From a virus: 64,000 bases of DNA. The translations under genes and the position numbers were made by a program. Shown here piece by piece: positions 7,248-63,595 of the stretch (position 1 is its first letter; each line of letters starts with the position of its first letter). The notes under the pieces are model-generated. The model was not told the DNA's origin, ran no database searches, and saw only the letters and a program-made list of their open reading frames with translations. Location of the stretch: positions 1 to 64,000 of the IMG/VR virus record IMGVR_UViG_2802428989_000001. One strand, written 5' to 3'.

Positions 7248-7963
7248 CACTCGCACTGGTCACCGACGACATGACGACAGGTGTTCTGAAAACAACTGAT
7301 GGCGAGCGTAACTCGCGCAAGAAGCTGTACTGGAAACGTCGGCGAGAAGCGCTATCGGGCGTCGCGCTGGAACGCTTGGCAGATCTTGGTATTGAGTTCC
7401 CGGTGGTCGCGGGAACCATGACTATCCCCGAGGTTTGCGACTACTTCGGAATCAGCCGTTCGACACTGACCAACATAGCCCGCCAGTACTACGAAGAGCT
7501 GATCGAGGTCGGTTACATGCCCGGCAGCGTGACACAGCCGACGCGGTACAGCGAGTTGGCGCTTGCGCATGTTGCGATGATCCTGCGACCCAGCACATCT
7601 GACCAGGCGATGATCATCCAGAAGGCACTAGGCATCTACCGCGCACCTCGCGGAGCCGTCAAGGTCCACAACCAGAGTGGTGCTCACGTCAAGGTCTGCG
7701 GCCGCGTGCTCGATGAGGCATACAAGCTGATCAGTGAGATTCGCGAGGATGACCCCGAAGAGGTTTGGAAGGCGCTGGAGAAACGCAATCGTCATGAGCT
7801 GCAAGTGCTCACGGTGGCGTTGGCGGCGCTAGTGCCGAATGACCGCGGTGGACTGCGCGCTTGGCTGGCCGAAATCGGTCTGGGCATCCGCTCGGACGCT
7901 CAGAACAAGGCAGCGGTCGGGCTGGCCAGCTTGGTCCCGAGTCGTCAGCAGGTGTCTGAGTGA
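7244..7963 (+). CDS. Hypothetical DNA-binding protein (HTH).
   Basis: 'IPEVCDYFGISRSTLTNIARQY' HTH-like. The start overlaps the previous stop. Confidence 0.5.
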   Translation: MTLALVTDDMTTGVLKTTDGERNSRKKLYWKRRREALSGVALERLADLGIEFPVVAGTMTIPEVCDYFGISRSTLTNIARQYYEELIEVGYMPGSVTQPTRYSELALAHVAMILRPSTSDQAMIIQKALGIYRAPRGAVKVHNQSGAHVKVCGRVLDEAYKLISEIREDDPEEVWKALEKRNRHELQVLTVALAALVPNDRGGLRAWLAEIGLGIRSDAQNKAAVGLASLVPSRQQVSE

Positions 7964-28291: not shown

Positions 28292-29778
28292 CCACTGCAA
28301 TCGCGCTGCCGTCGCTCCAGCTGTCGAAGGACGAACAAGCCGTACTGATGGATCTGACTACTCAGCTCCAGAAGCACCAGGGCGAAAACCTGATCAAAGA
28401 GCAGTACTACGAGGCTAAGCGCCGAATGGAAGATCTCAAGATCGCCATTCCTCCAACACTTTCCAATCTGATGTGCTGCGTAGGCTGGCCCGCCGTCGCT
28501 GTTGACAGTCTAGTTGAGCGGCTGAACTTTGAGGGCTGGTCATACGAGGGTGACGGCGAGGATCGCGACCCGCTGGGGCTCGATGAGATCTTCCTGGAGA
28601 ACGATCTCGATGTCGAGTCGGATGTTAACCACACAGACGGTCTGATGTACGGAACCTCTTTTGTGGCAGTATCTTCCGGGCTAGACGATGAGCCGGAAGT
28701 GGTCGTGACGGTTGAGTCGCCGCGGAACATGACCGCCATCTACGACCCTCGTACGCGGCGCGCTACCTCGGCGTTCCTCCAGATCGTTGATCGCGAGCTG
28801 CGGTTGGTAGGCGGGCGGCTGATTCTGCCCAACGAAATCATTTCTCTGGAATGCGTTCCCATGGAACTCGGCGCGGCGGGTGTGGGAAACATGCGAGTGG
28901 TCGACCGTAACAAGCACAACCTAGAGCGCGTGCTGGTCGCCCAGATGATCAACCGGCCACGGTCGGGTGCGCGCGGCCGCAATGGACACTCTGAAATCAC
29001 CGAAACACTTATCTCGCATACGCAGTCGGGCATGCGGACGCTAGCCAATATGGAAGTAGCGCGCGAGTACCTGGCATCGCCTCAGCGCGCGGTGCTCGGT
29101 GCGAAGGAATCATTCTTCGTCGGGGAGGACGGCAAGCCGGTCCCGGCGTGGAAATCCTATATCGGCCGCATGATCGCACTGGAGCGTGACGAGTATGGCG
29201 AGATCCCTGACATCAAGGAATTCAAGGGCGCCAGCCTGGAATCGTTCTTCGGTCAGATGCGCACACTGAGCCAGCTCGTATCCTCTGAAATTGCTGTCCC
29301 TGCAAACTATTTGGGATTTGAGACAGACAACCCGCCATCTGCCGACGCGATCCGGTCACTAGAGGGTCGCCACGTCAAACGCGCGGAGCAGCGCCAGAAG
29401 ACTTTTGGCCGCGGCTGGTCGGAGACCGCGCGGCTGTGCGTGATGGTGCGTGAAGGCAAGAAGTTCAACGAACTACCCGACGAGATTCGCAAGGTACGCC
29501 CCCAGTGGCGCGACGCCGCAACGCCGACCTTCGCGGCAACATCCGACGCGGTGACCAAGCTCATCGACAAGGGCGTTTACACACCGACATCGCGCGTCAC
29601 CCGCGACAAGCTGGGAATTAGTCGGGCTGATCAGCGACAGATGGAGATTGACGATAAGAAGACGACGGTCACGAACCTCGTCGCGTCGGTCCGTCAAGGT
29701 GTCGAGAATGCACGCCAGGACAGCCAGGTAGCGTCCCTGGCTGACCGTAGAGCGGCATCTGTTGGCCAGCCTGGTTGA
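28288..29778 (+). CDS. Portal protein.
   Basis: 496 aa, directly after the terminase large subunit with an overlapping start. Confidence 0.85.
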   Translation: MTTAIALPSLQLSKDEQAVLMDLTTQLQKHQGENLIKEQYYEAKRRMEDLKIAIPPTLSNLMCCVGWPAVAVDSLVERLNFEGWSYEGDGEDRDPLGLDEIFLENDLDVESDVNHTDGLMYGTSFVAVSSGLDDEPEVVVTVESPRNMTAIYDPRTRRATSAFLQIVDRELRLVGGRLILPNEIISLECVPMELGAAGVGNMRVVDRNKHNLERVLVAQMINRPRSGARGRNGHSEITETLISHTQSGMRTLANMEVAREYLASPQRAVLGAKESFFVGEDGKPVPAWKSYIGRMIALERDEYGEIPDIKEFKGASLESFFGQMRTLSQLVSSEIAVPANYLGFETDNPPSADAIRSLEGRHVKRAEQRQKTFGRGWSETARLCVMVREGKKFNELPDEIRKVRPQWRDAATPTFAATSDAVTKLIDKGVYTPTSRVTRDKLGISRADQRQMEIDDKKTTVTNLVASVRQGVENARQDSQVASLADRRAASVGQPG

Positions 29779-32700
29779 GCAGGCTCAAGCGCTCCAGAGC
29801 GTCCTGGGCGACCTTTCTACGCTATCCACCAAAGACCTTGTGAGCCTGTACAAGAAGCTCGAAGGCGACGGCGCTACCGGTGCCGACTTGCTGGACGCGT
29901 TCAAGGCCGTGTTCCCCGAGGTTGTACAGCCTTACGTCGAGGCCGCATCCGAAGTGGCGAATCAGTGGTACGGGGAGCTGGCACCCGATGAGCCGTACAC
30001 ACCGAAAGCGGTCGCCGCGATCGACGCGGTGCCACTAGACCGCATGATGAACTCTCTGGAGTGGGCGTTTCGCGCCGCTGGCACCGCTCACCCGCTGACA
30101 AGACTGACCGGTTCGGCGCAGCGCATGGTGTTCGACGGTGCTCGCGCGACGATTCTGCACAACGCTGACGCCGAGAATGTCAAGTACTCGCGCCTGGCGT
30201 CGCCGGGTGCGTGCGAGTTCTGTCGAGTGATGGCCACGCGTGGAGCGGTCTACCGCAGCGCTCACGCGGCGCAGGCGGGCCATGACAACTGCCATTGCGT
30301 GCCGGCTGTTGCCCGCGGAAAGCTCAAATTCCAGCGTCCGGGGTACTACCAGGACTGGGATGCCGAGTACATCGAGACGGTCAAACAGCTCGAAGCTGAG
30401 CAGATCAAGCCGACGCTCAACGCGGTCCTGTCGAAAATGCGGGCCAACGAACTGGCCGCGTCAGACAGCGGGCCAACACTGGTAGCGATGTCTACCAAGA
30501 AGTCACCGGCATCGGCGGACCTCGCAAAGTGGCTTGATGCTGAGAAACAGCACCAGGCGGACGTGGCCGCTTGGCTGGACGCCGAGAAGGTAGTCACGAA
30601 GAAGAAGGCCAAGGCCGCGGCGCAGGCGAAGTACGTCGCCAAGAAGAAGGCCACCGCCGAGTGGCTGGCGGCTGAGCAGCAGTACCAGACAGATGTAACG
30701 ACGTGGCTCGCGGCTGAGAAGGACTTCACCAAGAAAAAGGCCAAGGCCGCAGCGCAGGCGAAGTATGTCGCGAACAAGAAGGCGACTGTCGCCTGGCTTA
30801 AGGCCGAGCAGATCTACATCGAGCAGCAGGCCCCACTTGCGACCGCTGCGGCAGCGGCCAAGGCATCCGCGAAGATCACCGCGATGGCGAACGCGGCCGC
30901 GAACGTCGATCTCAAGAAAGCGGCCAAGGCACTCGCGGCGGCCAAGCATGCGGCCAAAAAGAAGGGCGACACTGCCAAGTACAACGTACTGGCCAAGATG
31001 ACGCCCACGGAATACGTGCAATCCAAGGGTGGCAACGCATCCAAGGCCGCGACGACGGCCACCGCCAAGGTCACCACACCGGAGACCGCGCCGACCGCCG
31101 GAGTCGGCACTGTATCCACCGCGACCAAGCCCAAGGTTGTCGTCGGCGAGCTGACAGATTCGCCGAACGTGCTCGCCAGCACCGGTCAGGTACTCGGCAC
31201 GCACGGCGCCACGGTGTACACCGACTCACAGTCTCAGAAGTGGTTGGTCAAGGGGCCCAAGAACCCGAATGATCAATTCCTGGTCACGCTGGATGCGGCA
31301 TCTGCTGAGCTGCAAGCGAAGTCGGGCTTGACGACACCGGCGATGTACATCATGACGGTAGGTGGTAAGCGTCAGTCCGTTCAGTACATGTTCCCCGGAA
31401 GTAAGAGTGCCTTTCCTTCTGGGGTTGACCTGTCCACAATCAGTGAACCTGATCTGTTGACGATCCAGAAGCATCACGCGCTCGACTGGCTGATGGGTAA
31501 TCACGACAGCCATGCTGGGCAGTTCATCCGTACTGGTAGCGGTGAGATCGTCGGAATCGACAAGGGTCAAGCCTTCAAGTATTTCACCGGCGACAAGCTG
31601 GACTGGAACTATCACCCCAACGTCAAGCACGGCACGCCAGAACCCATTTACAACACGCTGTTTCGGCAGTACGCCGAAGGCAAGCCCGGTCAGTTGCTCA
31701 ATCCCTCGGGCGGCGAGCTAGCGGACTACATCCAAGGTTTACAGGCGATTCCAGACAAAGAGATTCGCAACCTATTTCGGCCCTACGCCGAGGGTGCGGT
31801 CAAACAGGGGAAGCTGTTGGTCGAGGCCAACGGTAGCACTCCAACGAACAATGTTGACGCGTTCCTAGACGCAGTTGTTGCCAGAAAGAACAGTCTCGGA
31901 ACCGATCTGAGCGCCTACTACGTCAAGGCTGTCGAAAAGCGTCTGACGAAGACCAAAGTCAAAGGTGAGGTCATCACCGTGCCGCCAGGGATGAGCATCT
32001 CCCAGGGTGACATCCTGCTGCCGACACCATCAGCGACGACGACGGTTCTGTTGCCGTCTGCTGATGTGCTCAAGAAGGCAGGCAAAGCACTCGCATCCGC
32101 GAAGTATCTAGCGAAAAAGAAGGGCGATACAGCCAAGTTCGCCGAGCTGTCGAAGTTGTCACCCGCTCAATACTTGCAGACCAAGAGCGGTGATGGCCTC
32201 GTGCCCACGGCCGCTACCGAGTCACCCACGGGTTCTGCGACCACTATTCAAATTGCCAAGTGGCAAAAGGAATTTCTCCAGAAGTTCGGCTCCAGCGGGT
32301 TCTTCCAGCCTGTCAAGTCGATGGCGGTCGAGAAGGGTATCAAGCTTTCGGAGGCAATCCCAGAGTTCGATAAAGAGTTCGGAATCAACGCCTTGACCGT
32401 GGATCAGATGGTCAACCTGATGGGCTATTACGGCGCGGCCGTCCAGAGCAAGTGGATCAACAAGTATGGCGATCTGCTCGGCGATGACGTAGCCACAAAG
32501 GTGTGGGACAAGCTCAAGGCGCAGGGCAAGTCCACACTCATAGAACCGCCGAAACCTGTTGCCATCAAGCCGGGTACGAAGTACACACCCGAGCATGAGC
32601 AGCCCGTAGCCGAAATCGCCAAGCTGGGTAAGGCTGTCATCGCCAACCCGAAAGCACCGGTTGGATCTGCGGACAACCCGCACATATTCGACGCGAGCGG

Positions 32701-33301
32701 TAAGACGGCGGAGTGGCAGCAGTTCGGATCGCTGATGTCGCCGCAAGACCAGGCATCCTGGAAGGCCAATCAGTACAGCGCCATCAAGTCCTACACCGGC
32801 AGCGGCTATAGCACCATGAACGCGCACGCGCGCGAAGACAAGGTGCCCTCAGCCAAGACGAAGGCGCTCGATTCAGCGTTTTATGAGCACAAGCCTTTCG
32901 AGGAGCACATCGTGCTCAGCCGCGGTACGCACGCTGTTGAGTTCAACGACGAGAACAGTTTGGGAATGAAGTTCAACTTTGCCGACAGCACCGATGTTGA
33001 CGCGCTCAAGGTGCTGGAGGGTGAGACGTACGTGTCCAAGTCCTTCCTGTCCACGTCGATCACCACGGTGCCGGCATTCAGCAACCCGGTCCGCGTGCTG
33101 TACAAAATGAGACCCGGCCAGCGAGGCATTTTCGTCTCAGGCACGCCAGACGGGGCGAACCAACTGACCTCCGTGGGAACACATGAGCGCGAGGTTATCC
33201 TTCCCCGTAACCAGAAGATGAAGGTGCTCGAAGTACGGAAGTCGACCGGGACGCATTCCAAGGTTGACGTGATCGTGGAGGTGGTGGATCAACCTGTCTA
33301 A
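29762..33301 (+). CDS. MuF-family head morphogenesis protein fused to Lys/Ala-rich repeats, a protein-kinase-like (APH/HipA-like) core and a C-terminal R-S-E ADP-ribosyltransferase domain (1179 aa). Start uncertain: TTG at 29762, or GTG near 29840.
   Basis: Follows the portal gene. 'ACEFCRVMATRG...HDNCHC' MuF-like. Repeats 'KKKAKAAAQAKYVAKKKAT'. 'GNHDSHAGQF...VGIDKGQAF' (HGDxxxxN plus IDxG spacing of 18). ART motifs 'YTGSGYSTMNAHAR', 'FLSTSIT' and 'THEREVILP'. Confidence 0.8.
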   Translation: MASLVEQAQALQSVLGDLSTLSTKDLVSLYKKLEGDGATGADLLDAFKAVFPEVVQPYVEAASEVANQWYGELAPDEPYTPKAVAAIDAVPLDRMMNSLEWAFRAAGTAHPLTRLTGSAQRMVFDGARATILHNADAENVKYSRLASPGACEFCRVMATRGAVYRSAHAAQAGHDNCHCVPAVARGKLKFQRPGYYQDWDAEYIETVKQLEAEQIKPTLNAVLSKMRANELAASDSGPTLVAMSTKKSPASADLAKWLDAEKQHQADVAAWLDAEKVVTKKKAKAAAQAKYVAKKKATAEWLAAEQQYQTDVTTWLAAEKDFTKKKAKAAAQAKYVANKKATVAWLKAEQIYIEQQAPLATAAAAAKASAKITAMANAAANVDLKKAAKALAAAKHAAKKKGDTAKYNVLAKMTPTEYVQSKGGNASKAATTATAKVTTPETAPTAGVGTVSTATKPKVVVGELTDSPNVLASTGQVLGTHGATVYTDSQSQKWLVKGPKNPNDQFLVTLDAASAELQAKSGLTTPAMYIMTVGGKRQSVQYMFPGSKSAFPSGVDLSTISEPDLLTIQKHHALDWLMGNHDSHAGQFIRTGSGEIVGIDKGQAFKYFTGDKLDWNYHPNVKHGTPEPIYNTLFRQYAEGKPGQLLNPSGGELADYIQGLQAIPDKEIRNLFRPYAEGAVKQGKLLVEANGSTPTNNVDAFLDAVVARKNSLGTDLSAYYVKAVEKRLTKTKVKGEVITVPPGMSISQGDILLPTPSATTTVLLPSADVLKKAGKALASAKYLAKKKGDTAKFAELSKLSPAQYLQTKSGDGLVPTAATESPTGSATTIQIAKWQKEFLQKFGSSGFFQPVKSMAVEKGIKLSEAIPEFDKEFGINALTVDQMVNLMGYYGAAVQSKWINKYGDLLGDDVATKVWDKLKAQGKSTLIEPPKPVAIKPGTKYTPEHEQPVAEIAKLGKAVIANPKAPVGSADNPHIFDASGKTAEWQQFGSLMSPQDQASWKANQYSAIKSYTGSGYSTMNAHAREDKVPSAKTKALDSAFYEHKPFEEHIVLSRGTHAVEFNDENSLGMKFNFADSTDVDALKVLEGETYVSKSFLSTSITTVPAFSNPVRVLYKMRPGQRGIFVSGTPDGANQLTSVGTHEREVILPRNQKMKVLEVRKSTGTHSKVDVIVEVVDQPV

Positions 33302-46425: not shown

Positions 46426-48557
46426 CCCAGCCCGATCAGCTCAACCCCGAACAGGCGGCTAATTACGACAGCCTGGCCGCGTGGGCGGAGATGACCGAGA
46501 TCGACTGGCGGAACAAGTACAACGCGCCCTATCAGACAGCGCTTGATCAGTTCACGGGCGGATTCTTCGGCGGGCTGCCGACAGGCATGCCGCACAGTCT
46601 GGCAATGCTGACGGCGTTGATTCGCAAGCTGATCGGCAATCCTTTTGCAATTTTCCGCTCAGCCGAGGAGGCGCTGGACGCGCTGTTTCAGATTCCGATC
46701 ATCGGTGATCTGCTGTCGATCGTCTTCCGTGGCACGATTCCGCGATCTTGGATTTCTGATGTCATCGAAGATCTGATCAGTGGCGCTGGTCAGTTCCTCA
46801 ACGCATTGAGCGTCAGCGGTAACCCGTTCCTCCAGTGGGACCCCGCCAAGCCGGGTTGGCAGTCTGGCGGGTCAGCCAAGATGACCGCTAACGGAACCCA
46901 ACAGTCTGCACGCTCAGAGATATTCAATGTTGTGCCCGGACAGATACTTGAGCTACCAGCGGGCACGATGTGGTCGAGCCTGACCGCCACTCCGGGTACG
47001 AATCCCATCAAGGTTGGCTTCGCGACCTGGGACGCGAATAAGAACCCACTGCCCGATGTGATCACCGGCCAACTGCAACCCCCCGCAGCTAACGGTATCT
47101 GGCAAGCCATGCCGTCGCAGCCCTGGAAAGTCGAGAGCGGAGTGGCCTTCGCTGCGCCGCTCCTGATGCTGGACTCCGGCGCAACTTCGGGTGATGTGTG
47201 GTTCTCGAATGTATTGCCACACATGTCAAACAAGATCAACCCGCTAGATCTGCAAAGTATTTTAGAGGGTGGCAACAACATCGCCGAAGACATCCAGAAC
47301 ACCTGGAATAGCTTCTGGAATGGAGTATTTGGTGGAAGCGCCACCGGCAAGACGCCGGATGATGTAAAGGCTGCTGCTGGACATGTCACATCGGTAGCGA
47401 GTGACGCTAGCGCCGCGGCGCAGTTCGCGGCTTCGATGGTTATCCGACCTCGGCGCAGTCCACGCTGGATCTCCACTGGAACTCACGATGATGTTTCGTT
47501 CCCAATCATTTCGGCGCAGTCGATGTTCACCCCCGCGCTGAATGACATCACCTACATTCCCATCACACCGGACACAGATCGAGTCTATAAGGCGCTGAAG
47601 TTCGGGCTCGTCGGCTCATCGATGACCAACTGCTATGTCGGCGTGTACAAGATCGAGACAGACGGAACGCTCACCCTGGCAGTGAATCTCGGTGACAAGA
47701 AGCCAAGTCTGACGGCATCGAAGGTTCAGACATTCGCCATCCCCGGCGGCGTCGGAGTGGGTCGCGGAGAGACCGTATTCATCGCGGTACGACAGGTGGG
47801 TGGCACGGCTGGCCAGATGTTCACCACTCCTTCATTACTTCAGGTGACGGAGGTTGTGCAGCCATTGCCTACGTACCCGACAGAGAAGAACAACACTGGT
47901 AGTGGGCTTCCTGGGTCTATCTCGGGTGCGATAGTTCGCTCCGAGTCCGCGCCAGCCTGGGGTGCACTCGGTGAGACACTTCTGGATTCGCCGTGGACAG
48001 ACTTCTCAACGCCAGGCACACATTCCTTCCTGATCCCTACGGATGCTCGCTACATCTACATCATTGGCTCTAGCGCTGGTGGGGGCGGCGGCGGTGGCGA
48101 CGGCGGTTGGAACAAGCCGGGTGAAGGTGGTCGCCGCGGGCAATGGGCGGCAGTGAGTCTAGAGCGGGGTGTTGGCATCCCTTGGGATGTCACGGAGTTG
48201 GAGATCTATCTTCCGTCTGGCGGCGCAGGCGCTCCCGGCAGAGAGCAGAACGGCAGCGCAGGAGGTGCGTTGAATGTCCACTTCGCAGGTAGTCCGTTCA
48301 CGGTCCTACTGAACATCCCCGGTGGTGTGGGTGGCCGGCTGGCATACGGCGGGTTTTTCAATCGCGACCCGGTAGGCGAGGCCCAAGTGAACTACCCGTT
48401 CTTTGGTCGGCTCTTCGTGGGTGGCCTCGCGGCGGCAACGGATACGAACGGCAACCCACCCGGTGGCGGCGGGGGTGGCGGTGAGGGTGGCGTGGGCGGA
48501 TCGGCCAATGGCGGTCGTCCGGGTGGTTCCGGCTTCTGCGCGATAAGGACTGCCTGA
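46422..48557 (+). CDS. Minor tail protein with Gly-rich (collagen-like) C-terminal segments.
   Basis: 'GGGGGGDGGWNKPGEGG' and 'GGGGGGEGGVGGSANGGRPGG'. Confidence 0.7.
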   Translation: MTQPDQLNPEQAANYDSLAAWAEMTEIDWRNKYNAPYQTALDQFTGGFFGGLPTGMPHSLAMLTALIRKLIGNPFAIFRSAEEALDALFQIPIIGDLLSIVFRGTIPRSWISDVIEDLISGAGQFLNALSVSGNPFLQWDPAKPGWQSGGSAKMTANGTQQSARSEIFNVVPGQILELPAGTMWSSLTATPGTNPIKVGFATWDANKNPLPDVITGQLQPPAANGIWQAMPSQPWKVESGVAFAAPLLMLDSGATSGDVWFSNVLPHMSNKINPLDLQSILEGGNNIAEDIQNTWNSFWNGVFGGSATGKTPDDVKAAAGHVTSVASDASAAAQFAASMVIRPRRSPRWISTGTHDDVSFPIISAQSMFTPALNDITYIPITPDTDRVYKALKFGLVGSSMTNCYVGVYKIETDGTLTLAVNLGDKKPSLTASKVQTFAIPGGVGVGRGETVFIAVRQVGGTAGQMFTTPSLLQVTEVVQPLPTYPTEKNNTGSGLPGSISGAIVRSESAPAWGALGETLLDSPWTDFSTPGTHSFLIPTDARYIYIIGSSAGGGGGGGDGGWNKPGEGGRRGQWAAVSLERGVGIPWDVTELEIYLPSGGAGAPGREQNGSAGGALNVHFAGSPFTVLLNIPGGVGGRLAYGGFFNRDPVGEAQVNYPFFGRLFVGGLAAATDTNGNPPGGGGGGGEGGVGGSANGGRPGGSGFCAIRTA

Positions 48558-56973: not shown

Positions 56974-57012
56974 AACGCCCCCAACCGCATTCAGCTCGCG
57001 GTTGGGGGCGTT
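56974..57012. terminator. Bidirectional rho-independent terminator between convergent genes.
   Basis: 15-bp stem AACGCCCCCAACCGC / GCGGTTGGGGGCGTT with T-rich DNA downstream and A-rich DNA upstream. Confidence 0.8.
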
Positions 57013-57020
57013 TTGTATTT

Positions 57021-57188
57021 CTATTGCAATGTCTCGTAGGCGGTAGCTACTTGACCTTTCAGATCTTCGATCGTGTTCAGCGCCTCAAGGTGTGAGTCGA
57101 TGAGTTGCCGCTCGCGTTCGGCGCTCGGGTGGTAGTCCATCTTGTTCACGACTCGTCGCCAACCGGCGAGCGTTTCGCGTTTGATCAT
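57021..57188 (-). CDS. Small hypothetical protein (55 aa).
   Basis: ATG shares its A with the upstream stop (TGATG-style overlap). Last gene of the leftward operon. Confidence 0.35.
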   Translation of the reverse strand: MIKRETLAGWRRVVNKMDYHPSAERERQLIDSHLEALNTIEDLKGQVATAYETLQ

Positions 57189-57628
57189 CAGTGCCCCTCT
57201 CTGGAATCCAATTCGGTTGTAATGTCGGAGATTGGGCGACTTCCCGCCTCGATTCGATCGTGGACGCAGACAGCCCCTACGCACGGGGGACCGTTGAATA
57301 CCCTTTCGATCAGCCCTCCCAGTCGTGAGTCACCGGACGCCATGTTGCCTCCGAACATTGTCCACGTGCGCATCTGGAATGCCGAGAGCGGCACAAAATG
57401 CGGCAGCGCTCCGGGTAGATTTGGCCCGACAAGCACCACGGCGTTATCGCTCGTAGACTCCACAACCCGTGATCCCTCCGGTGGTGGAATCAGCTCACCG
57501 TTGCGGTCGCTCGCGATACCGACCAGAACCAGACGAGAGTGCCGCGCGCTGATGCCATTCAGGGTGCAGTCGGGAAAGTCCGCGGGTCGCAAGACCGTTA
57601 GTTCTAATCCCATCATTGTGTCAGTCAT
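57188..57628 (-). CDS. Hypothetical protein (146 aa) co-transcribed downstream of the ADP-ribosylglycohydrolase gene.
   Basis: ATG shares its A with the glycohydrolase stop. No recognisable motif. Confidence 0.45.
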   Translation of the reverse strand: MTDTMMGLELTVLRPADFPDCTLNGISARHSRLVLVGIASDRNGELIPPPEGSRVVESTSDNAVVLVGPNLPGALPHFVPLSAFQMRTWTMFGGNMASGDSRLGGLIERVFNGPPCVGAVCVHDRIEAGSRPISDITTELDSREGH

Positions 57629-58638
57629 CAGAACTCGTATCCTTCCGCTTCTGAAATCTCTTTCTGGTAGCGCGTTTCCAGCCGATCGAACCACTCGGCA
57701 GGCCATGGGTCGTCATACATCGCGCCGAGGATTGATCCCGCGATCGCCGCGATCGAGTCGCTGTCACCGCTCGTGACCGTCGCGCGACGTAGTGCCGCTA
57801 TCGGGTCATTGGGAAACAGATCGATGCAGAACAGCGCGCACGCCAGCGCATCATGAGCGCGCCAGCCGGGGCCAGCGTGCTCACACGGATCGAGATCCCA
57901 CGGATCAACACCAGAATCACGCAACTGGCGAAGTGCGATATCCGCGGTCAGTAGACGGTCCTGGACGAAGAGCAGACCGCGCGTCATGAACCGACGCACG
58001 CCGACCTCAGCGACGACAGGGTGACCGTCGATCCAACGGGCAACATCCGTAAGTAGAGACGAATCATGATGTAGCCCAGTGCTTGCCAGATAGACCGCCT
58101 CTTCGAGCAGCCGCCCTGGGTAGATGCTTCGCGCATTGCGGATGATCGCTGCGGTCAAGAGCGATGCGGCGATGCCCGTCGCGCGCCCGTGGGTGGATGC
58201 TGCTTGCCACGCGGCGACCCCTTGCCAGCTGCGATCTTTGGTTACGAAAGCTGCTGGACTGACGCGCATTACCGTGCCGCATCCATCCGAGTTCAAAATA
58301 GTGGCCTTGGGCCAGGGGAAGTCGTTCTTCAACGCCCCGATAGCGCGCATGCACGTGTTGCCCGGTGCGCGGTTGTTGTCTGGGTCATCGAACCACTTGA
58401 TCCACTGATCGATGATCTTGACGCCAACCTCATCATCGGTCAATTCTTTTGTGTCGTGGAGACCTCGCGCGAGCGCGAGCGTCATCTGAGTGTCGTCGCT
58501 GATGATCAGCTTCTCAGGCAGCTCTGGGCCCATTAGCCCGTTTTCGGTGAGCTGAGCGTACGACCTGAACTCATTGCGGTAGCCCCACGCATCGCCATAG
58601 GCGACACCACGGAGCACGTTGGACCATTTACTAGGCAT
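57628..58638 (-). CDS. ADP-ribosylglycohydrolase (DraG/ARH family).
   Basis: N-terminal 'GVAYGDAWG' and C-terminal 'SGDSDSIAAIAGSILGAMYD' metal-binding signatures of the ARH fold. Confidence 0.85.
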   Translation of the reverse strand: MPSKWSNVLRGVAYGDAWGYRNEFRSYAQLTENGLMGPELPEKLIISDDTQMTLALARGLHDTKELTDDEVGVKIIDQWIKWFDDPDNNRAPGNTCMRAIGALKNDFPWPKATILNSDGCGTVMRVSPAAFVTKDRSWQGVAAWQAASTHGRATGIAASLLTAAIIRNARSIYPGRLLEEAVYLASTGLHHDSSLLTDVARWIDGHPVVAEVGVRRFMTRGLLFVQDRLLTADIALRQLRDSGVDPWDLDPCEHAGPGWRAHDALACALFCIDLFPNDPIAALRRATVTSGDSDSIAAIAGSILGAMYDDPWPAEWFDRLETRYQKEISEAEGYEF

Positions 58639-58831
58639 TTGGTTTCCTCATATGGAAGGGGACGCACGTTTCGCACTCGTACTTTCCGGACTCATCAGCG
58701 ACGTACACACCGAGAGGTGTGGTGTGCCGCTTCGCGCTGGGCCGCTCCTTGATGGCGAAACGCATGTACATACCCGAGTGCTCGTCGCACGTGACCATTC
58801 CGCCGTTATCGATCCAGACCCTCTTGGCCAT
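58631..58831 (-). CDS. Small zinc-ribbon protein.
   Basis: 'CDEH...CETC'. First gene of the leftward operon. The operator-bearing promoter region lies upstream. Confidence 0.45.
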   Translation of the reverse strand: MAKRVWIDNGGMVTCDEHSGMYMRFAIKERPSAKRHTTPLGVYVADESGKYECETCVPFHMRKPNA

Positions 58832-58855
58832 GAGCAGCCCTTTCGTCCGTTGTTT

Positions 58856-58923
58856 GGTAGACGGCTCTACCGTAGCACATTGGTAGAGCTGTCTACTACT
58901 CTATTGGTAGAATGAACTACCAA
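58856..58923. promoter_or_regulatory. Divergent promoter region with three GGTAGA-type palindromic operators.
   Basis: GGTAGACGGCTCTACC at 58856-71. GGTAGAGCTGTCTACT at 58882-97. TTGGTAG-n6-CTACCAA at 58904-23, abutting ATG 58925. Confidence 0.55.
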
Positions 58924-58924
58924 G

Positions 58925-59731
58925 ATGACACACATGACCGACGACAAGATCGTTGACAAGATCGCAAAGCTGTTGCGACAGGCCGAGGATGTAACAGGGA
59001 CGCCCGAGGAGGATGCGTTTCAAGAGCGCGCCTTCGCACTGCTGGCCAAGCATGGCATCGACCTGGCGACTGTGCGCGCACATCAGCGCGGACTCGACAT
59101 CAGCGACATGCCGAACGCCATCGACACGCTGATGCTTGTTCATAGTCCTTACGCGAGTGAGCAGAAGCACATGCTGTCCATCCTCGCGGAGGCGCTGCAT
59201 TGCAAGACCGTTGGACTCAATGACATCCCGTTCGTGCATGTCTTCGGTATGTCTCACCATGTTGCGCGTCTACAAATGCTCTGGGAGATATTGCAACCAC
59301 AGGCGACGCGCTTGGTTGCCAAAGTGCAGATGTCGAAACGGAAACCGGTTCGCAAGCTCACCCCATCCGAGTGGGCGGCGATGAATCGAGCGCAGCGAAG
59401 AGACCACCTGGTAGAGATGACGCGCGAAAGACGTGCACCGGTATCACTGCACGTTTATCGCCAGTCGTGGTTGATCGGGTTTGCCGCGTCGATCGCTCAG
59501 CGCATTAAGCTCCAGGAAGGAGAGGCCGCCAACAAGGCTGGCGTGGTCGCGCTATACAAGTCCGACCGTGAGCGCGCTGACGACGCGATGCGCGGCGCGT
59601 ACCCGGACGCGGTCAACACTATGGTGGACCAGTTCAGTGACGATGGATTCAACCAGGGTGCGCGCGCCGGACAGACCGCGACCATGGATCGGCCGGTTGA
59701 GTCTGTAGACCCTCTAGGTTTGCCGCGCTAG
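58925..59731 (+). CDS. Hypothetical protein with an alpha-helical N-terminus ('KIVDKIAKLLRQAE...EEDAFQERAFALLAKHGI').
   Basis: ATG immediately after the operator. 268 aa. Confidence 0.55.
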   Translation: MTHMTDDKIVDKIAKLLRQAEDVTGTPEEDAFQERAFALLAKHGIDLATVRAHQRGLDISDMPNAIDTLMLVHSPYASEQKHMLSILAEALHCKTVGLNDIPFVHVFGMSHHVARLQMLWEILQPQATRLVAKVQMSKRKPVRKLTPSEWAAMNRAQRRDHLVEMTRERRAPVSLHVYRQSWLIGFAASIAQRIKLQEGEAANKAGVVALYKSDRERADDAMRGAYPDAVNTMVDQFSDDGFNQGARAGQTATMDRPVESVDPLGLPR

Positions 59732-59767
59732 TAGCTTGCACTACCGGCCACGTCACTAGACTAAAAG

Positions 59768-60157
59768 GTGACAACTGGAGGACACTTCATGACCATGGCA
59801 ACAGCTCCCACCAACGCAACCGGATGGCTACGCGAGAACGGTTTCAAACTGTCTCGCGCGGCATCGTCGCGTTTCGTGGACACGTTCAACGATCTCGTCG
59901 AGCGCTACGCAGACCCAGCGGAGTATCCGATGCGCGACGCGGCGATCATGGCTGCGGCGCGGTATCTCTCGGAAGAGCTGACCTTGGATGATGCTGGTCT
60001 GGCGCTGGAGCGAGCGCGGAGCCGCGCCGACACGGGCATGGCCGTTGCGCGCGTCGTGGCCCTGCTGTCGATGGAAGACGGTCTGAGTGAGCATGGTGCA
60101 CAGCGCGCGGCCCGCGTCGATCGTATGACCGTGCGACGTTGGAGGGGGAAGCGGTGA
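59768..60157 (+). CDS. Putative HTH DNA-binding protein.
   Basis: C-terminal 'GLSEHGAQRAARVDRMTVRRW' HTH-like. Confidence 0.45.
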   Translation: MTTGGHFMTMATAPTNATGWLRENGFKLSRAASSRFVDTFNDLVERYADPAEYPMRDAAIMAAARYLSEELTLDDAGLALERARSRADTGMAVARVVALLSMEDGLSEHGAQRAARVDRMTVRRWRGKR

Positions 60158-60441
60158 CCGAGTACCTGGGTCTCACTGACATCTGCGCATGCGGTCACGA
60201 TCTGGAAAACCACGACCTCGGCGACCCGCATCACCGCGCCGGCGCGTGCGCTGGCCATGAGCTGGATGGCCCTTGCGACTGCACGCACTACCGGGAGAAG
60301 TGCCGGTGTCCCGAGTGCGACGATCTGGAGGAGATTGAGGTCGAAGAGATGACCACGCGAACCCTGCTGACGACTCTGGGTGTGCTGGTTGGGTTCGGTG
60401 TTCTGCTCGGTATGTCGTTCGGGAGACTGATCAGGCGCTAG
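60154..60441 (+). CDS. Cys/His-rich protein with a C-terminal TM helix. Start could be GTG 60154 or ATG 60139.
   Basis: 'CACGHDLENHD...HHRAGACAGHE...CDCTHY...CRCPECD', then 'LLTTLGVLVGFGVLLGM'. Confidence 0.4.
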   Translation: MTEYLGLTDICACGHDLENHDLGDPHHRAGACAGHELDGPCDCTHYREKCRCPECDDLEEIEVEEMTTRTLLTTLGVLVGFGVLLGMSFGRLIRR

Positions 60442-60473
60442 ATGCGCCACAGTGGCGAAATACGTTGATACGG

Positions 60474-60510
60474 AAGCACCCCCGAGATTCGCTCTCGGGG
60501 GTGCTTTGTC
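60474..60510 (+). terminator. Rho-independent terminator.
   Basis: 13-bp stem AAGCACCCCCGAG / CTCGGGGGTGCTT followed by TTGTCGTTG. Confidence 0.75.
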
Positions 60511-60521
60511 GTTGTGAAAGC

Positions 60522-60710
60522 TTAGAAAGTGGCGTCGATGGAGCGAGCGAAGCTGACTACATTGTCCCGCAGTTGCACTCCCAGGTCTTGCGCCGCGCGA
60601 CACCGCTTAACGAATTCATCAGGTTTGAGAACGCCTGCCATGACATCACATTTCTGGTTGTACAACGATGCCTCGATGTCTATCGCCTGTCTCTTGGTGA
60701 CTATGCTCAT
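60522..60710 (-). CDS. Small ORF (62 aa), low confidence; the locus may instead be a small RNA.
   Basis: ATG directly abutted by the operator GGTAGAGCAGTCTACC (60711-26). Only ~59% GC3. Flanked by two terminators. Confidence 0.3.
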   Translation of the reverse strand: MSIVTKRQAIDIEASLYNQKCDVMAGVLKPDEFVKRCRAAQDLGVQLRDNVVSFARSIDATF

Positions 60711-60752
60711 GGTAGAGCAGTCTACCAGCTGGACTCATGCTTATCAATAAGA

Positions 60753-60805
60753 ACGGCACCCCCGAACCTAATCTCCGGGGGTGCCGTTTCTCCGTTTGTT
60801 TTTCC
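60753..60805 (+). terminator. Rho-independent terminator-like hairpin with a T-tract.
   Basis: 12-bp stem ACGGCACCCCCG / CGGGGGTGCCGT followed by TTCTCCGTTTGTTTTT. Confidence 0.6.
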
Positions 60806-60815
60806 AGCGACGAAA

Positions 60816-62255
60816 TCAGCTCTTCTTGAGCTTCAAGGTGCCGACGTAATCATTGTCGTAATCCCGAATCTCGAAGTCCGTCATGAGGTTCTGGATCTGA
60901 TCGTCAATGGTCGGCGTGGCGATACCCTCTTCGGCCTCAAACTGCGCCTTGAGCTGGTTGTGCAGCGACACCGCCGCGCCAACCAGATCGGTGGTATCCA
61001 GCTTGTAGTTGGTTCCGCCATTGAGCCGACCGATCGCGAACGTCTTGGCTCGCTCCAGGGCCTCGCGTACGAACGCCGGATAGAAACCGACCACCACGCC
61101 ATCACCAAGCTGGATGGTCATCGCCTCATAGACCTTGTCGTAGTCCACGTCATCTGCAAGACGCTCAGTTGCGACGACGGCCTTGATCAGACGTTCAACA
61201 CCGTTGCGGTCCAGTGCCGCGACCTCAACCACCGCATCGATGCGCCCAGGGCGGAGCATGCCCTTGTGGATGCGCTCAAAGTGGTTGGTAGTCATCAGAA
61301 GTGCGACCTCGGACCCCTTGGATGTGACACCATCGAAGGTCTCCAGCAGCTTGGACACCTGGTCTACGTCGCTGGTCGATGTCTGATTGTCCACGTCCTC
61401 AATGAATACCACCGCGGGCTGGTACAGCTTCGCTGTACGGAGAACATCATTGATGTCATCACCCGGTCGTGCAGCGATGAAAGTCCAACCATTCTGGACA
61501 GCCTCCAGCGCGGTGAGCTGACCAGCCGAGGTCTTCCCGGTACCGTACGGACCCTCCAGCAGCAGCGCGCGCTTGATGCGCACGCCCTCGCCTTTGAGTG
61601 CCTTGCGGTGCCGAATCACCGACCACAGAGTGCCTTCCAGTGTGCTCATCACTTCGTCGGAGAAGACGATCTCACTCGGTACGATGGTCGCGAGGTTCAG
61701 GAACTCCGGTTCCTCGGTGCCGACGATCGCCTTACCGCGATAGATCGAGTTGGTTTTCAGCTCCTCGCCGATCGCATCAAGGAACTCACGCGCGATTTTG
61801 GCGTTCTTCTTCGCAGTGATGACGGTGACATGAGTGACGATCCCGTTGTCGCGATCGCGTTTGCCGCCGACGTTGACCAGCGTCCGATTGTCAACGCTGG
61901 GCAGGTAGACGTTGCCCCATGGAACTTCCAGGGTCTCGGTTGCCGAAATCTGCACCGTGCGGGTTTCCGGGGGTTCGGGCGGGGAGAAGAAACCGCCACC
62001 ACTCGGAGCGCCGATGGTGATACCGAACATGCGCTTCATCACCCGAGAGGTGGCGACCGCGCCGTCAAACGGACGGAACTGGTAGGTGCGGCTAGTCTGC
62101 TGCACCGACTCGGCCTCATCCTGCATGCGCTCCAGGATCTCCTTGGCGCGACCGTATGTAATGCCTTCCGGCAGAACGATCTGCGGGTTCTTGTGAAAGG
62201 TAACCTCATCACCGGTGATGATGTCGGTATCGTTCATTGGTTTTCTCACTTTCAT
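60816..62255 (-). CDS. Classic-clade AAA+ ATPase with a ~250-aa N-terminal domain of unknown function.
   Basis: Walker A 'GPYGTGKTS'. Walker B 'VVFIEDVD'. Second region of homology 'RPGRID'. Start chosen at MKVRK (RBS GGAAGGTG). The ORF track extends it to 62393. Confidence 0.8.
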   Translation of the reverse strand: MKVRKPMNDTDIITGDEVTFHKNPQIVLPEGITYGRAKEILERMQDEAESVQQTSRTYQFRPFDGAVATSRVMKRMFGITIGAPSGGGFFSPPEPPETRTVQISATETLEVPWGNVYLPSVDNRTLVNVGGKRDRDNGIVTHVTVITAKKNAKIAREFLDAIGEELKTNSIYRGKAIVGTEEPEFLNLATIVPSEIVFSDEVMSTLEGTLWSVIRHRKALKGEGVRIKRALLLEGPYGTGKTSAGQLTALEAVQNGWTFIAARPGDDINDVLRTAKLYQPAVVFIEDVDNQTSTSDVDQVSKLLETFDGVTSKGSEVALLMTTNHFERIHKGMLRPGRIDAVVEVAALDRNGVERLIKAVVATERLADDVDYDKVYEAMTIQLGDGVVVGFYPAFVREALERAKTFAIGRLNGGTNYKLDTTDLVGAAVSLHNQLKAQFEAEEGIATPTIDDQIQNLMTDFEIRDYDNDYVGTLKLKKS

Positions 62256-62307
62256 TGAATGCACCTTCCGCACCTTGCGAAAGAGGTTGTTGTTGGTGAT
62301 GTTTGAA

Positions 62308-62350
62308 CACCCCCGCCCGCCACCCGGTATAGAAAGAACGGGCGGGGGTG
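62308..62350. other. Perfect 12-bp GC hairpin (CACCCCCGCCCG ... CGGGCGGGGGTG) in the leader region of the AAA gene.
   Basis: 19-nt loop. Lies between the upstream small gene and the AAA start. Confidence 0.5.
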
Positions 62351-62515
62351 CGTTGTGTTGGTGACGTGAGCCAGTCTTAGGGATCGCGCCCAATGACCAC
62401 TTAGCGCGCTAGCTCGCGTCCTTACCGTGGCCGCGACCAACGAAATCACTTCTCAGACAAACGAGACGGGACCAGGGGGCGTGAGGGTCGCTCACGACCC
62501 CTGGTGATCTGCTGA

Positions 62516-62701
62516 CTAGCTAGACAGCAGATCTTCGCCTTGTTCGATGTGGGCTAGCTCTGTCTCCAGGGATTGCACTTCGGCCACGAGAGCACGAAGC
62601 TCGCGTTTGCGATTTGCAATCTTCTGGGTGACAACCCTGCGTCGTTGGCGCAGGGTTGCTAGCGCCTCATCTCGGCTCATCCCGTCAGGCAGTTGAACCA
62701 T
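62516..62701 (-). CDS. Small coiled-coil protein (61 aa).
   Basis: Strong SD 'CAAGGAGGTGAAC' before ATG at 62701 (the ORF track starts it at 62743). Confidence 0.45.
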   Translation of the reverse strand: MVQLPDGMSRDEALATLRQRRRVVTQKIANRKRELRALVAEVQSLETELAHIEQGEDLLSS

Positions 62702-62774
62702 GTTCACCTCCTTGTTTCCGCTTGTCGTCGTTGTGATTGACACCTTTCGGTGTCGCTGATCAGTGTAGCAGCAA

Positions 62775-62883
62775 TGGTAGACAGGTCTACCAATATGGAC
62801 TCACTGAAAGTGTTGTACAAGGCAACGCTACGTCAAATGGTGGACATAGACCTCGTGCAGTTTAGGTAGTAGAGTCATCTACC
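62775..62883. promoter_or_regulatory. Divergent promoter region with a perfect 18-bp palindrome and a second GGTAG...CTACC site.
   Basis: TGGTAGAC-AG-GTCTACCA at 62775-92. GGTAG-n9-CTACC at 62865-83. Confidence 0.55.
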
Positions 62884-62907
62884 AACGTGCAACTGAGGAG
62901 GTTCACC

Positions 62908-63105
62908 ATGTCAGAACAGGTTTTCACCGCGACCGACCCGGACGGCGACACGCTGGACGTGCAACACTGGGCCAAGGCGCAGAAGATCACCGTCAAGGTT
63001 CTAGACCGAGACGGCGATTTCCAGTCGGTCGAGCTGGACTATGGCGACGCTGCTGAGCTGGCGACAGCCATCACGGGGACGCTCGCGGAGGTGGCGGGGG
63101 CGTGA
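62908..63105 (+). CDS. Small acidic hypothetical protein (65 aa).
   Basis: RBS 'GAGGAGG' 7 nt before ATG 62908. Confidence 0.45.
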   Translation: MSEQVFTATDPDGDTLDVQHWAKAQKITVKVLDRDGDFQSVELDYGDAAELATAITGTLAEVAGA

Positions 63106-63210
63106 CCGACCCCTACGCAGCGGATGTGTACGACCCTCTGGCGTGCAACTATCCCTGGGCATGCTCGTCTCGTCATAGCGCTTGGCGTCTGAGTGCGCTG
63201 AAAAAATCAA

Positions 63211-63249
63211 GGAACTGAGACCTGCTGTATGGCAATAGGTCTCAGTTCC
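63211..63249 (-). terminator. Rho-independent terminator for the lipoprotein gene (- strand).
   Basis: 13-bp stem GGAACTGAGACCT / AGGTCTCAGTTCC with an A6 tract on the + strand, giving a U-tract on the - strand. Confidence 0.75.
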
Positions 63250-63595
63250 GGTCGTCTACCTTAGTGATCGCCTGATCAACGTGAGATACGCGCGCCGGAC
63301 AGACGTAACTCATGCCCATGCGCGTCGCGTTAATGACGCCGTTGCTGCCCTTGTCATGATTGAGCGCGACCCACTTGGCCATCTCTTCGGTGCTGTAGTT
63401 GCAATGCTCGACCGCTTGGTCATAGAGCGCATCGAAGCGGAAGTCACCATTTGGGTAGGCGCGTCTGAATTCAGTGCCCCAGGCCTGCTGGTTGACCTCG
63501 GACTTCGTTTTGAGTACATCAGGTGCGCTAGCCGGCGCTGAGCACGCCAGGACGCAACCAGCGGTCAGCGCGGCTAGTGCGATCTTGGTGAACAT
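63242..63595 (-). CDS. Secreted lipoprotein (signal peptide plus lipobox LTAGC).
   Basis: 'MFTKIALAALTAGCVLACSAPASA'. Has its own terminator. Moron-like or host gene. Confidence 0.6.
   Translation of the reverse strand: MFTKIALAALTAGCVLACSAPASAPDVLKTKSEVNQQAWGTEFRRAYPNGDFRFDALYDQAVEHCNYSTEEMAKWVALNHDKGSNGVINATRMGMSYVCPARVSHVDQAITKVDDRN

Follow-up and report, generated by a model that had tools for sequence, protein, structure and literature searches.

Right-arm palindromes of a MabR mycobacterial prophage as probable operators of gp87, with a proposed link to the ESAS elements of cluster K phages

Seven palindromes in the right arm of the virus recorded as IMG/VR entry IMGVR_UViG_2802428989_000001 are probably operators of gp87, a small helix-turn-helix (HTH) protein encoded among them that would act as the self-regulating repressor of a second circuit, apart from immunity. 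The window analyzed here is the stretch of 64,000 nucleotides (nt) at positions 1 to 64,000 of that record. Over its right 8 kb the window matches Mycobacterium phage prophiFSAT01-1 (BK061308.1), carried as a prophage by Mycobacteroides abscessus strain 280, with 100% identity, and window positions equal BK061308.1 positions minus 217. This phage belongs to cluster MabR together with McProf, prophiFSIL01-1, prophiFVLQ01-1 and prophiFSQJ01-1 (PMC9434293; FSAT, FSIL, FVLQ and FSQJ below). MabR prophages, McProf among them, increase the intrinsic antibiotic resistance of M. chelonae and are frequently found in clinical isolates of M. abscessus, and the genes from the lysis cassette to attR are those thought to be expressed in lysogeny (PMC8191103, PMC9434293). 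The MabR paper calls this right-arm stretch "most likely expressed during lysogeny" and makes no mention of operators, palindromes or promoters (PMC9434293). The present analysis would place these lysogeny-linked genes under a defined control circuit, for which it names a candidate regulator and maps seven operators.

The palindromes are strongly overrepresented and, but for one copy, lie in non-coding DNA of the right arm. Their consensus is TGGTAGA-N4-TCTACCA. The 64-kb window holds five exact matches to GGTAG-N6-CTACC (0.00 expected from shuffles) and eight to the core GTAG-N6-CTAC (0.19 expected), and none of 100 shuffles reaches eight. A weight matrix built from the MabR sites and run over the whole 67.7-kb record returns the same eight sites only (16.7-30.9 bits), with no further site above 8 bits. 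Seven of these are non-coding, in a record where non-coding DNA amounts to 3,071 bases or 4.5% (binomial P = 3e-9, or 2e-7 if the doubtful 31-residue reading frame gp92 is counted as coding). The first-pass annotation had described the motif as intergenic, and in the scan one copy alone falls in coding sequence. All seven non-coding copies lie at 58.8-62.9 kb, spread over six predicted promoters. Three of them form a triplet with spacings of 26 and 24 bp, two more are separated by 92 bp, and two stand alone. Six had been listed in the first-pass annotation and all six are present where it placed them. The list was incomplete, since it missed TAGTAGCTTGCACTACCG at 59729-59746, and it gave one real site a less suitable register, GGTAG-n9-CTACC at 62865-83, which is better read as TAGTAGAGTCATCTACCA at 62867-62884 with N6 spacing.

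The eighth match is an operator-like site of full strength, TGGTAGCGATGTCTACCA (30480-30497, 22.6 bits), inside gp53, a minor capsid/ADP-ribosyltransferase fusion. It occupies the identical codon position in five of five MabR phages. Its flank remains GG-type in FSQJ too, where most of the other sites are of the TAGTAG type, so that coding constraint is the simpler explanation. With approximately 0.19 chance sites per window, chance plus coding constraint appears likelier here than a true operator.

Each of the seven right-arm sites overlaps the -35, -10 or +1 position of a predicted promoter. These promoter assignments are sequence predictions, with P85, P87 and P91 called from -10-like hexamers. 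Operators A1 (TGGTAGACGGCTCTACCG, 58855-58872, 23.4 bits) and A2 (TGGTAGAGCTGTCTACTA, 58881-58898, 26.7 bits) are kept in all five MabR phages. A1 follows the predicted extended -10 of leftward P85 (TGCTACGGT, 58869-58877, minus strand) and covers the edge of that element and the predicted +1, while A2 lies over the -35 regions of both leftward P85 and rightward P86. P85 would drive an annotated leftward operon of gp85, gp84, gp83 and gp82 (57021-58831, minus strand), which A1 and A2 would control and in which gp84 (57628-58638, minus strand) is an ADP-ribosylglycohydrolase (Pfam PF03747, 4.6e-49). The left half of A3 (TGGTAGAATGAACTACCA, 58905-58922, 27.4 bits) doubles as the putative extended -10 TGGTAGAAT of P86, and gp86 (DUF2786/DUF7168; 58925-59731, plus strand) is the first gene downstream of A2 and A3. 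Operator B (TAGTAGCTTGCACTACCG, 59729-59746) is the weakest match at 16.7 bits. It shares bases with the gp86 stop codon and with the -35 region of P87, the predicted promoter of gp87 itself, whose -10 TAGACT (59757-59762, plus strand) is followed by the Shine-Dalgarno sequence GGAGGA (59777-82) and the ATG at 59789.

The remaining three operators lie farther to the right. Operator C (TGGTAGAGCAGTCTACCA, 60710-60727, 27.3 bits) abuts the ATG of gp89 (62 residues, function unassigned; 60522-60710, minus strand), in agreement with the earlier claim that a palindrome adjoins the small minus-strand reading frame at 60710. On the minus strand it holds the extended -10 TGGTAGACT of P89 (TTGATA-17-TG-n-TAGACT, 60719-60747, minus strand), which is the sole sigma-70-type match in 57000-63300. 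This -10, which is one half of operator C, ends 8 nt ahead of the gp89 ATG and thereby implies a leaderless gp89 mRNA. Operator D1 (TGGTAGACAGGTCTACCA, 62775-62792, 30.9 bits) is a perfect palindrome over the -35 region of leftward P91. It precedes the predicted extended -10 of that promoter (TGCTACACT, 62762-62770, minus strand; TGCTACTGT at the same place in FSQJ), and gp91 (61 residues; 62516-62701, minus strand) lies downstream of both. Operator D2 (TAGTAGAGTCATCTACCA, 62867-62884, 23.8 bits) contains in its left half the -10 TAGAGT of rightward P93, with gp93-gp94 (62908-63218, plus strand) downstream. TANNNT hexamers are thus present within the left halves of A3 and D2, each directed at its adjacent gene (gp86 and gp93, respectively). 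The coordination that had been proposed for the glycohydrolase operon, the AAA-ATPase neighbourhood and several small genes holds in part: sites occur at the operon and at the small genes, but the AAA-ATPase gene has none of its own and only gp91 upstream of it does.

Comparison with related phages, to which the first-pass annotation had looked for conservation, finds the right-arm sites at matching positions in McProf, FSIL, FVLQ and FSQJ. A1 and A2 stand out as islands of identity in a five-way MabR alignment, and an equivalent of operator B precedes the HTH gene in five of five phages. Against FSQJ, the most divergent relative, the DNA between D1 and D2 has diverged almost wholly, and both palindromes and their 92-93 bp spacing survive. 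The -10-like elements of the right-arm promoters are conserved as well: the P85 element TGnTACGGT is kept in McProf and FSIL, with TAGAAT at the equivalent place in FVLQ, and ACTAGACT is kept upstream of the HTH gene in FVLQ and FSQJ. Site C is found only in the two phages that carry gene 89, FSAT and FVLQ, and A3 only in the three that carry gp86, which suggests that sites travel with the promoter-gene unit that they serve. Additional copies occur ahead of gene 25 in FSQJ and in the structural region of McProf. In McProf, TGGTAGAGTGCTCTACC is followed directly by an ATG, before the reverse-oriented small gene 56, and a degenerate second site GGTATACGTCTCTACC lies 24 bp upstream of this operator. 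McProf gp56 is reported to be weakly expressed in lysogens (PMC8191103). The leaderless ATG right after the operator (34939; L012, 34897-34977) is in frame with the annotated GTG and 14 codons upstream of it, and it is probably the true start of gene 56.

A search by DNA motif alone leads to gp87 homologues. We scanned 596 Gb of genomes, and IMG/VR, for two GTAGA-N4-TCTAC sites 6-14 bp apart (20 specified bases), a pattern with a calculated chance expectation of about five matches in 596 Gb. At least 120 loci were found in genomes and 77 in IMG/VR; the gene counts that follow are among the matches listed. A gp87 homologue is detected by single-sequence phmmer in approximately 65 of 128 high-GC loci, and in 70 after iteration. 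In 69 of these 70 the gene is directed away from the site block, usually 0-400 bp off. The gp87 family is the largest protein cluster near the sites in high-GC loci, and the next genuine cluster covers 18 loci. Of the 98 high-GC loci whose two sites are non-identical and 21-25 bp apart, 69 have a family gene, compared with 1 of the 99 other loci; the proportion is 46 of 61 where the flank on both sides is at least 1.2 kb. Outside MabR, no homologue of gp3, Cro, gp86, gp89, gp91 or gp93 was seen near the sites. The proposal of one dedicated right-arm regulator serving several promoters is supported by this comparative evidence. The candidates that had been named for it fare unequally: the 59768..60157 product has homologues at motif loci, but the 62516 and 62908 proteins have none near such sites elsewhere.

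Some matches to the scan belong to other settings. The same GTAGA-N4-TCTAC core occurs in AT-flanked pairs (TTTTGTAGA...TCTACAAAA), several of them in one metagenome-assembled genome (MAG) of Burkholderiaceae, and in 21-bp tandem arrays (GGGTAGACCCCTCTACCC), mostly in one Thermoanaerobaculia MAG. The gp87 family is not found nearby in either case. The remaining matches also include low-GC repeats. Loci in unrelated settings are L024, L043, L063, L095, L096, L099, L114, L122, L124 and L132, and also L055, L070-L076, L088, L116, L117 and L125. In 18 Micromonospora-type loci (L060, L054, L094, L199, L205 and others), a conserved protein of approximately 114 residues is encoded between the operator pair and the HTH gene. 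It gives only a faint GNAT-like signal and would be the leaderless first gene of its unit.

The association also holds in the opposite direction. IMG/VR loci were fetched with a peptide pattern from the family alignment, without use of the DNA motif, and 35 of 35 carry GT[AT]G-N6-C[AT]AC palindromes no more than 1.1 kb upstream, mostly paired 22-31 bp apart, with hardly any such palindromes elsewhere in these loci. Some contigs are common to both tests, which are consequently not fully independent. The half-site base also tracks residue 113 (gp87 numbering) of the recognition helix in a suggestive manner: methionine (DR-M-TVR) accompanies GTAG in 59 distinct cases and leucine (DR-L-TVR) accompanies GTTG in eight of eight.

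Pairs of sites upstream of family genes share an architecture in which operator and promoter are merged. Among 63 distinct pairs, 60 have a spacing of 23-24 bp. The left half of the upstream palindrome (O1) reads TAGACA, a five-of-six match to the -35 hexamer TTGACA, in 39 of the 63, and the left half of the downstream palindrome (O2) fits TANNNT in 60 (TAGAGT, TAGACT, TAGATT or TAGAAT). TCTAC at the end of O2 is followed directly by ATG in 35. The archetype is TAGACA, 17 or 18 nt, then TAGAGT. Since the -35 and the -10 are each embedded in a symmetric operator and the ATG abuts the second one, it is predicted to be a SigA-type promoter giving a leaderless mRNA, which usually encodes the regulator itself.

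This arrangement raises the question of whether the repeats are bare promoter elements, or are bound by a host factor or an alternative sigma factor, with gp87 merely a downstream gene. The left half-sites do double as -35- and -10-like hexamers at sigma-70 spacing, and a gp87-family gene could associate with them simply as promoter cargo. However, the right half-sites (TCTACA, TCTACC) have no role in polymerase recognition and yet equal the left ones in conservation, so the twofold symmetry points to a dimeric binding protein. In MabR and TM4, promoters of unrelated genes elsewhere in the same genome carry sites too, whereas the regulator gene is present once per genome, and the half-site base covaries with a recognition-helix residue of the phage protein. 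We consider the reading of gp87 as a mere downstream gene very unlikely.

The candidate regulator gp87 (122 residues; 59789-60157, plus strand) has its HTH at the extreme C-terminus, with the recognition helix at R112-W118 (RMTVRRW). The annotated ATG at 59789 is the likelier start, in preference to position 59768. The protein matches phrog_2311 (2e-21), and its relatives pass Pfam HTH_23; NCBIfam has no named family for it. An AlphaFold2 model made with 50 homologues (pLDDT 94.8) consists of four helices and then a short HTH at residues 101-118, with helices at 101-108 and 112-118. The last 32 or so residues superpose at 0.8-1.3 Å on the HTHs of serine recombinase/resolvase, IstA (the IS21 transposase) and CENP-B-N, with E-values that are not significant, and a PDB sequence search gives only marginal matches to transposase HTHs. 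The family is small: a single-query search of 1.84 billion proteins finds 89 representative clusters at E <= 1e-3. A word-indexed protein search finds only four close clusters, and a protein-pattern scan of genome contigs with the five MabR gp87 sequences finds no relative. The diversity of the family was instead taken from the DNA-motif scan. Homology extends over the whole protein (phmmer E-values as low as 3e-14 at loci that the DNA motif by itself had identified). D111, R112 and G120 are near-invariant and the family C-terminus reads ...GVDRMTVRKWLGKR, whereas the length of the N-terminus ranges from approximately 35 to 250 residues, and no sensor domain is evident.

Outside MabR, the nearest described counterparts of these sites are the ESAS elements of cluster K mycobacteriophages. 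A tblastn search with gp87 returns 232 phage records, nearly all of them cluster K, including Adephagia gp36 and ZoeJ gp36, and a related family member used as query reaches TM4 gp38. TM4 contains 13 TGTTGA-N4-TCAACA palindromes (26116-47663, L212), all intergenic, arranged as six pairs 29-37 bp apart and one single site, and gp38, the homologue of gp87, directly follows the first pair. Sites are likewise found upstream of the homologues Adephagia gp36 and ZoeJ gp36, as site B is upstream of gp87. These TM4 palindromes are the ESASs, whose 6-bp half-site and 4-bp spacer were noted with their function left open (Pope et al. 2011, PMC3203893). In Adephagia, ESASs contain SigA-like promoters and inverted repeats; a repressor was suggested to act there, the immunity repressor was argued against, and the regulator was not named (PMC11373665, 2024). 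Adephagia gp36 is listed in that work as a hypothetical protein with a weak match to a DNA-binding domain (PMC11373665). None of the papers searched connects the gp36/gp38 family to ESASs, and a full-text search for the motif letters and for 'LamD', an annotation carried by some cluster K homologues, gave nothing relevant. The connection of the gp36/gp38/gp87 family to ESAS regulation is therefore one that we infer here from sequence comparison.

The similarities between the two systems are considerable. Both have paired 6-4-6 intergenic palindromes over SigA-like -35/-10 hexamers; a gp87 homologue is encoded directly downstream of the first pair in TM4, Adephagia and ZoeJ; and in TM4, ZoeJ, Pixie and Adephagia, as in MabR, the genome position is just after the lysis cassette and a sliding-clamp-like gene. 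In the TM4 pair at 47621/47650 the first palindrome contains TTGACA and the second starts at a TACTGT -10 that follows 18 nt later, which fits the same promoter-in-operator design. The systems differ in the half-site (GGTAGA in MabR, TGTTGA in cluster K) and in arrangement, the MabR sites being single, paired or triplet, on both strands and at divergent promoters. The 13-bp SAS (GGGATAGGAGCCC) that defines the K elements has no match in the window at two or fewer mismatches, so the MabR element corresponds to the palindrome/promoter part only and is not an 'extended SAS'. Several MabR sites are predicted to drive leaderless or near-leaderless genes and not SAS-led ones. The clean 6-4-6 form is that of TM4 (K2), and the ESASs of K1 phages are 17-bp inverted repeats of another build. 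GTTG-N6-CAAC was rejected as a multi-copy motif of Adephagia, where it has three matches, one of them upstream of gp36.

On the best reading, the ESAS repeats of cluster K and the MabR sites are the same module. We regard the feature as a set of phage operators with their repressor, homologous to the ESAS module of cluster K, in which the specific regulator candidate is new. The first-pass annotation did not see that its motif is the MabR version of a module widespread in actinobacterial prophages, cluster K ESASs included. With less assurance, we lean towards a broader proposal in which the gp87/TM4 gp38/Adephagia gp36 family is the ESAS regulator and, with its 6-4-6 palindromes, makes up a portable, self-repressed and often leaderless cassette that jointly controls accessory genes outside immunity. 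In MabR these would include the ADP-ribosylglycohydrolase, which may counteract the capsid ADP-ribosyltransferase. The proposal names a candidate binding protein for the ESAS repeats of TM4-like phages, one that can be put to direct test. It also describes a compact promoter/operator/repressor unit with a possible Met/GTAG versus Leu/GTTG switch which, if the binding is true, could allow orthogonal expression control in mycobacteria.

That gp87 binds the sites has good support from its two-way association with them. In the mechanism that we favor, gp87 would bind each palindrome, presumably as a dimer, and by occupying the -35, -10 or start of SigA-type promoters would block RNA polymerase at P85 (the ADP-ribosylglycohydrolase operon), P86, P87, P89, P91 and P93. 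It would repress its own promoter through B, the weakest site, and so give negative autoregulation. The outcome would be a self-limiting circuit that serves the genes from the lysis cassette to attR and does not depend on the gp3/Cro immunity switch, and the MabR module would be one form of a portable unit that occurs across actinobacterial prophages.

The first-pass annotation had allowed for either a repressor or an activator. Repression is preferred to activation on the positions of the sites, which cover -35, -10 and +1 elements. If gp87 instead acted as an activator or dual regulator, it would recruit RNA polymerase at poor -35 regions. A2, B and D1 do lie over -35 regions that match TTGACA poorly, as would suit a class II activator, and the upstream palindrome of the archetype coincides with the -35 position. 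In addition, lysogens, in which the regulator is expected to be present, express the operator-linked genes McProf gp56 and Adephagia 36-38. On the other hand, A1, A3, C and D2 lie across the -10 and/or +1, so that a dimer bound there would be expected to keep polymerase out, and in the archetype O1 is already a good -35 match and O2 a good -10, so that an activator would be needless. Whereas Adephagia genes 36-38 are expressed in lysogeny, the ESAS-linked genes 75, 76 and 92 are silent, and the authors propose repression (PMC11373665). Activation by gp87 is consequently unlikely, and gp87 as repressor remains our preferred reading.

Several observations weigh against gp87 as the repressor of these sites. 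The support for this role is wholly one of genomic association, and the regulator could act jointly with a host factor. About one-quarter of well-flanked paired-site loci among the matches listed lack a family gene. Some of these gene-less pairs belong to chromosomal LacI-family regulators, whose operators account for 15 loci among the matches listed, and the bare motif is thus shared beyond the gp87 family. The eight Leu/GTTG cases all come from cluster K, and the Met/Leu covariation may reflect one ancestral change. gp87 itself scores 13.8 bits on Pfam HTH_23, under the cut-off of 24.6, and no solved structure in the PDB resembles the whole protein. At the promoters, the 8-nt discriminator of P89 is at the long end of the usual range, and the calls for P85, P87 and P91 use -10-like hexamers alone.

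If the right-arm palindromes were further binding sites for the immunity repressor gp3 or for Cro (gp4), the phage would have one circuit, in the manner of cluster A stoperators. The immunity intergenic region (2390-2612) has about five CTAGTAG repeats, four in one orientation and one inverted, with the -35 TTGACA of a rightward promoter among them. These share GTAG with the right-arm motif, the left halves of B and D2 read TAGTAG, and the right-arm sites of FSQJ read CTAGTAGAC. However, the immunity repeats are single and asymmetric, no GTAG-N6-CTAC palindrome is present in 2366-2653, and the changes in the FSQJ repeats (CTAGTAA, CTAGTGG) are unlike those of its right-arm sites. gp87 is unrelated to gp3 and gp4, and approximately 70 unrelated motif loci have an HTH homologue and no homologue of either immunity protein. 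The ESAS motif is likewise absent from the cluster K repressor-cro region (PMC11373665). A shared circuit is highly improbable in view of these points, and the earlier suggestion that the right-arm motif serves a circuit separate from immunity stands.

Other roles for the palindromes were also considered. As inverted repeats in intergenic DNA they could be RNA hairpins, terminators or processing sites, and true terminator-like hairpins are near at 60752-60788 and 60478-60503. But a hairpin with a stem of 7 bp and a loop of only 2 nt is sterically unfavorable, the predicted transcription starts are downstream of most sites, and there is no Rfam match. The GTAG/CTAC core was fixed by the search pattern and does not count as independent conservation. 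Among 26 distinct MabR sites the next pair outside the core is A:T in 20, whereas the central pairs are complementary in only eight and two, with no compensatory changes, indicating that sequence is conserved and not pairing. A function in RNA is hardly credible on this evidence. A bipartite (N6) restriction-modification target was rejected, because the sites are concentrated at promoters within 4 kb of the 68-kb genome and accompany an HTH gene, not methylases. Origin iterons or partition sites were rejected as well, the sites being dispersed at one to three per promoter and not arrayed.

The triplet A1-A3 resembles the lambda-type OR1-OR2-OR3 arrangement: three 16-18 bp palindromes lie 24-26 bp apart, center to center, between divergent units, and the candidate regulator gene is on one side (directly adjacent in FVLQ and FSQJ) with a weaker-scoring site of its own. 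Unlike the lambda operators, the MabR set is not an immunity switch, and no second antagonistic regulator is evident. It also differs from cI-like immunity systems in that its sites are not between repressor and cro (gp3-gp4). The predicted fold of gp87 is not of the cI/Cro type. The HTH occupies the very C-terminus, and no solved structure matches the remainder of the model.

Two further systems invite comparison. The stoperators of cluster A phages, bound by the L5 gp71 immunity repressor, are 13-bp asymmetric sites that are oriented with transcription, lie within operons and block elongation. Common to both is one phage protein (a candidate in MabR) that would act at many dispersed sites to silence non-structural genes of a mycobacterial prophage. 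The MabR sites differ in being symmetric, few, at promoters and tied to a separate protein. KorA/TrfB of IncP plasmids is a small dimeric repressor with an N-terminal HTH whose palindromic operators lie over the -10 of several promoters, including its own. The proposed gp87 circuit is similar, with a small HTH repressor at several promoters of a mobile element including its own. There is no significant relation in sequence or structure, although one gp87-family member has a weak match to Pfam KORA (E = 0.026), and the HTH of the gp87 family is C-terminal.

Additional features of the right arm concern the genes next to these sites. The gp86 leader (58921-58940) is approximately 15 nt shorter in FSAT than in McProf and FSIL (L002 6574-6605) and has lost its Shine-Dalgarno sequence, so that a near-leaderless gp86 mRNA would be translated in FSAT. 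Strong terminator-like hairpins flank gene 89 at 60752-60794 and 60478-60503, which makes it look like an insulated single-gene cassette. The first hairpin could work bidirectionally, between the convergent gp89 promoter region and the end of the AAA-ATPase gene gp90 (60816-62393, minus strand). For gp90 the annotated TTG start at 62393 places a strong GC-rich hairpin (~62310-62352) inside the gene, and an ATG start at 62237 seems more plausible. The product has Pfam AAA and nSTAND3 matches and a weak PADLOC match to the defence protein IetA (9e-6).

Two annotated genes around D1 may need revision. Gene 92 (31 residues, 62774-62869) starts at an ATG within operator D1; its DNA is not conserved in FSQJ, its length varies among relatives, and it is probably not a real gene. 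In FSQJ (L006, 7539-7868), the plus-strand 'membrane protein' gene 96 overlaps an unannotated gp91 homologue on the minus strand (~7563-7748) and is likely a misannotation. Finally, the minor-capsid protein with a fused ADP-ribosyltransferase (gp53, 29762-33301) and the ADP-ribosylglycohydrolase gp84 are both present in five of five MabR phages. The pair suggests a virion-borne writer and a prophage-encoded eraser of ADP-ribosylation that could serve self-protection or the exclusion of related phages.

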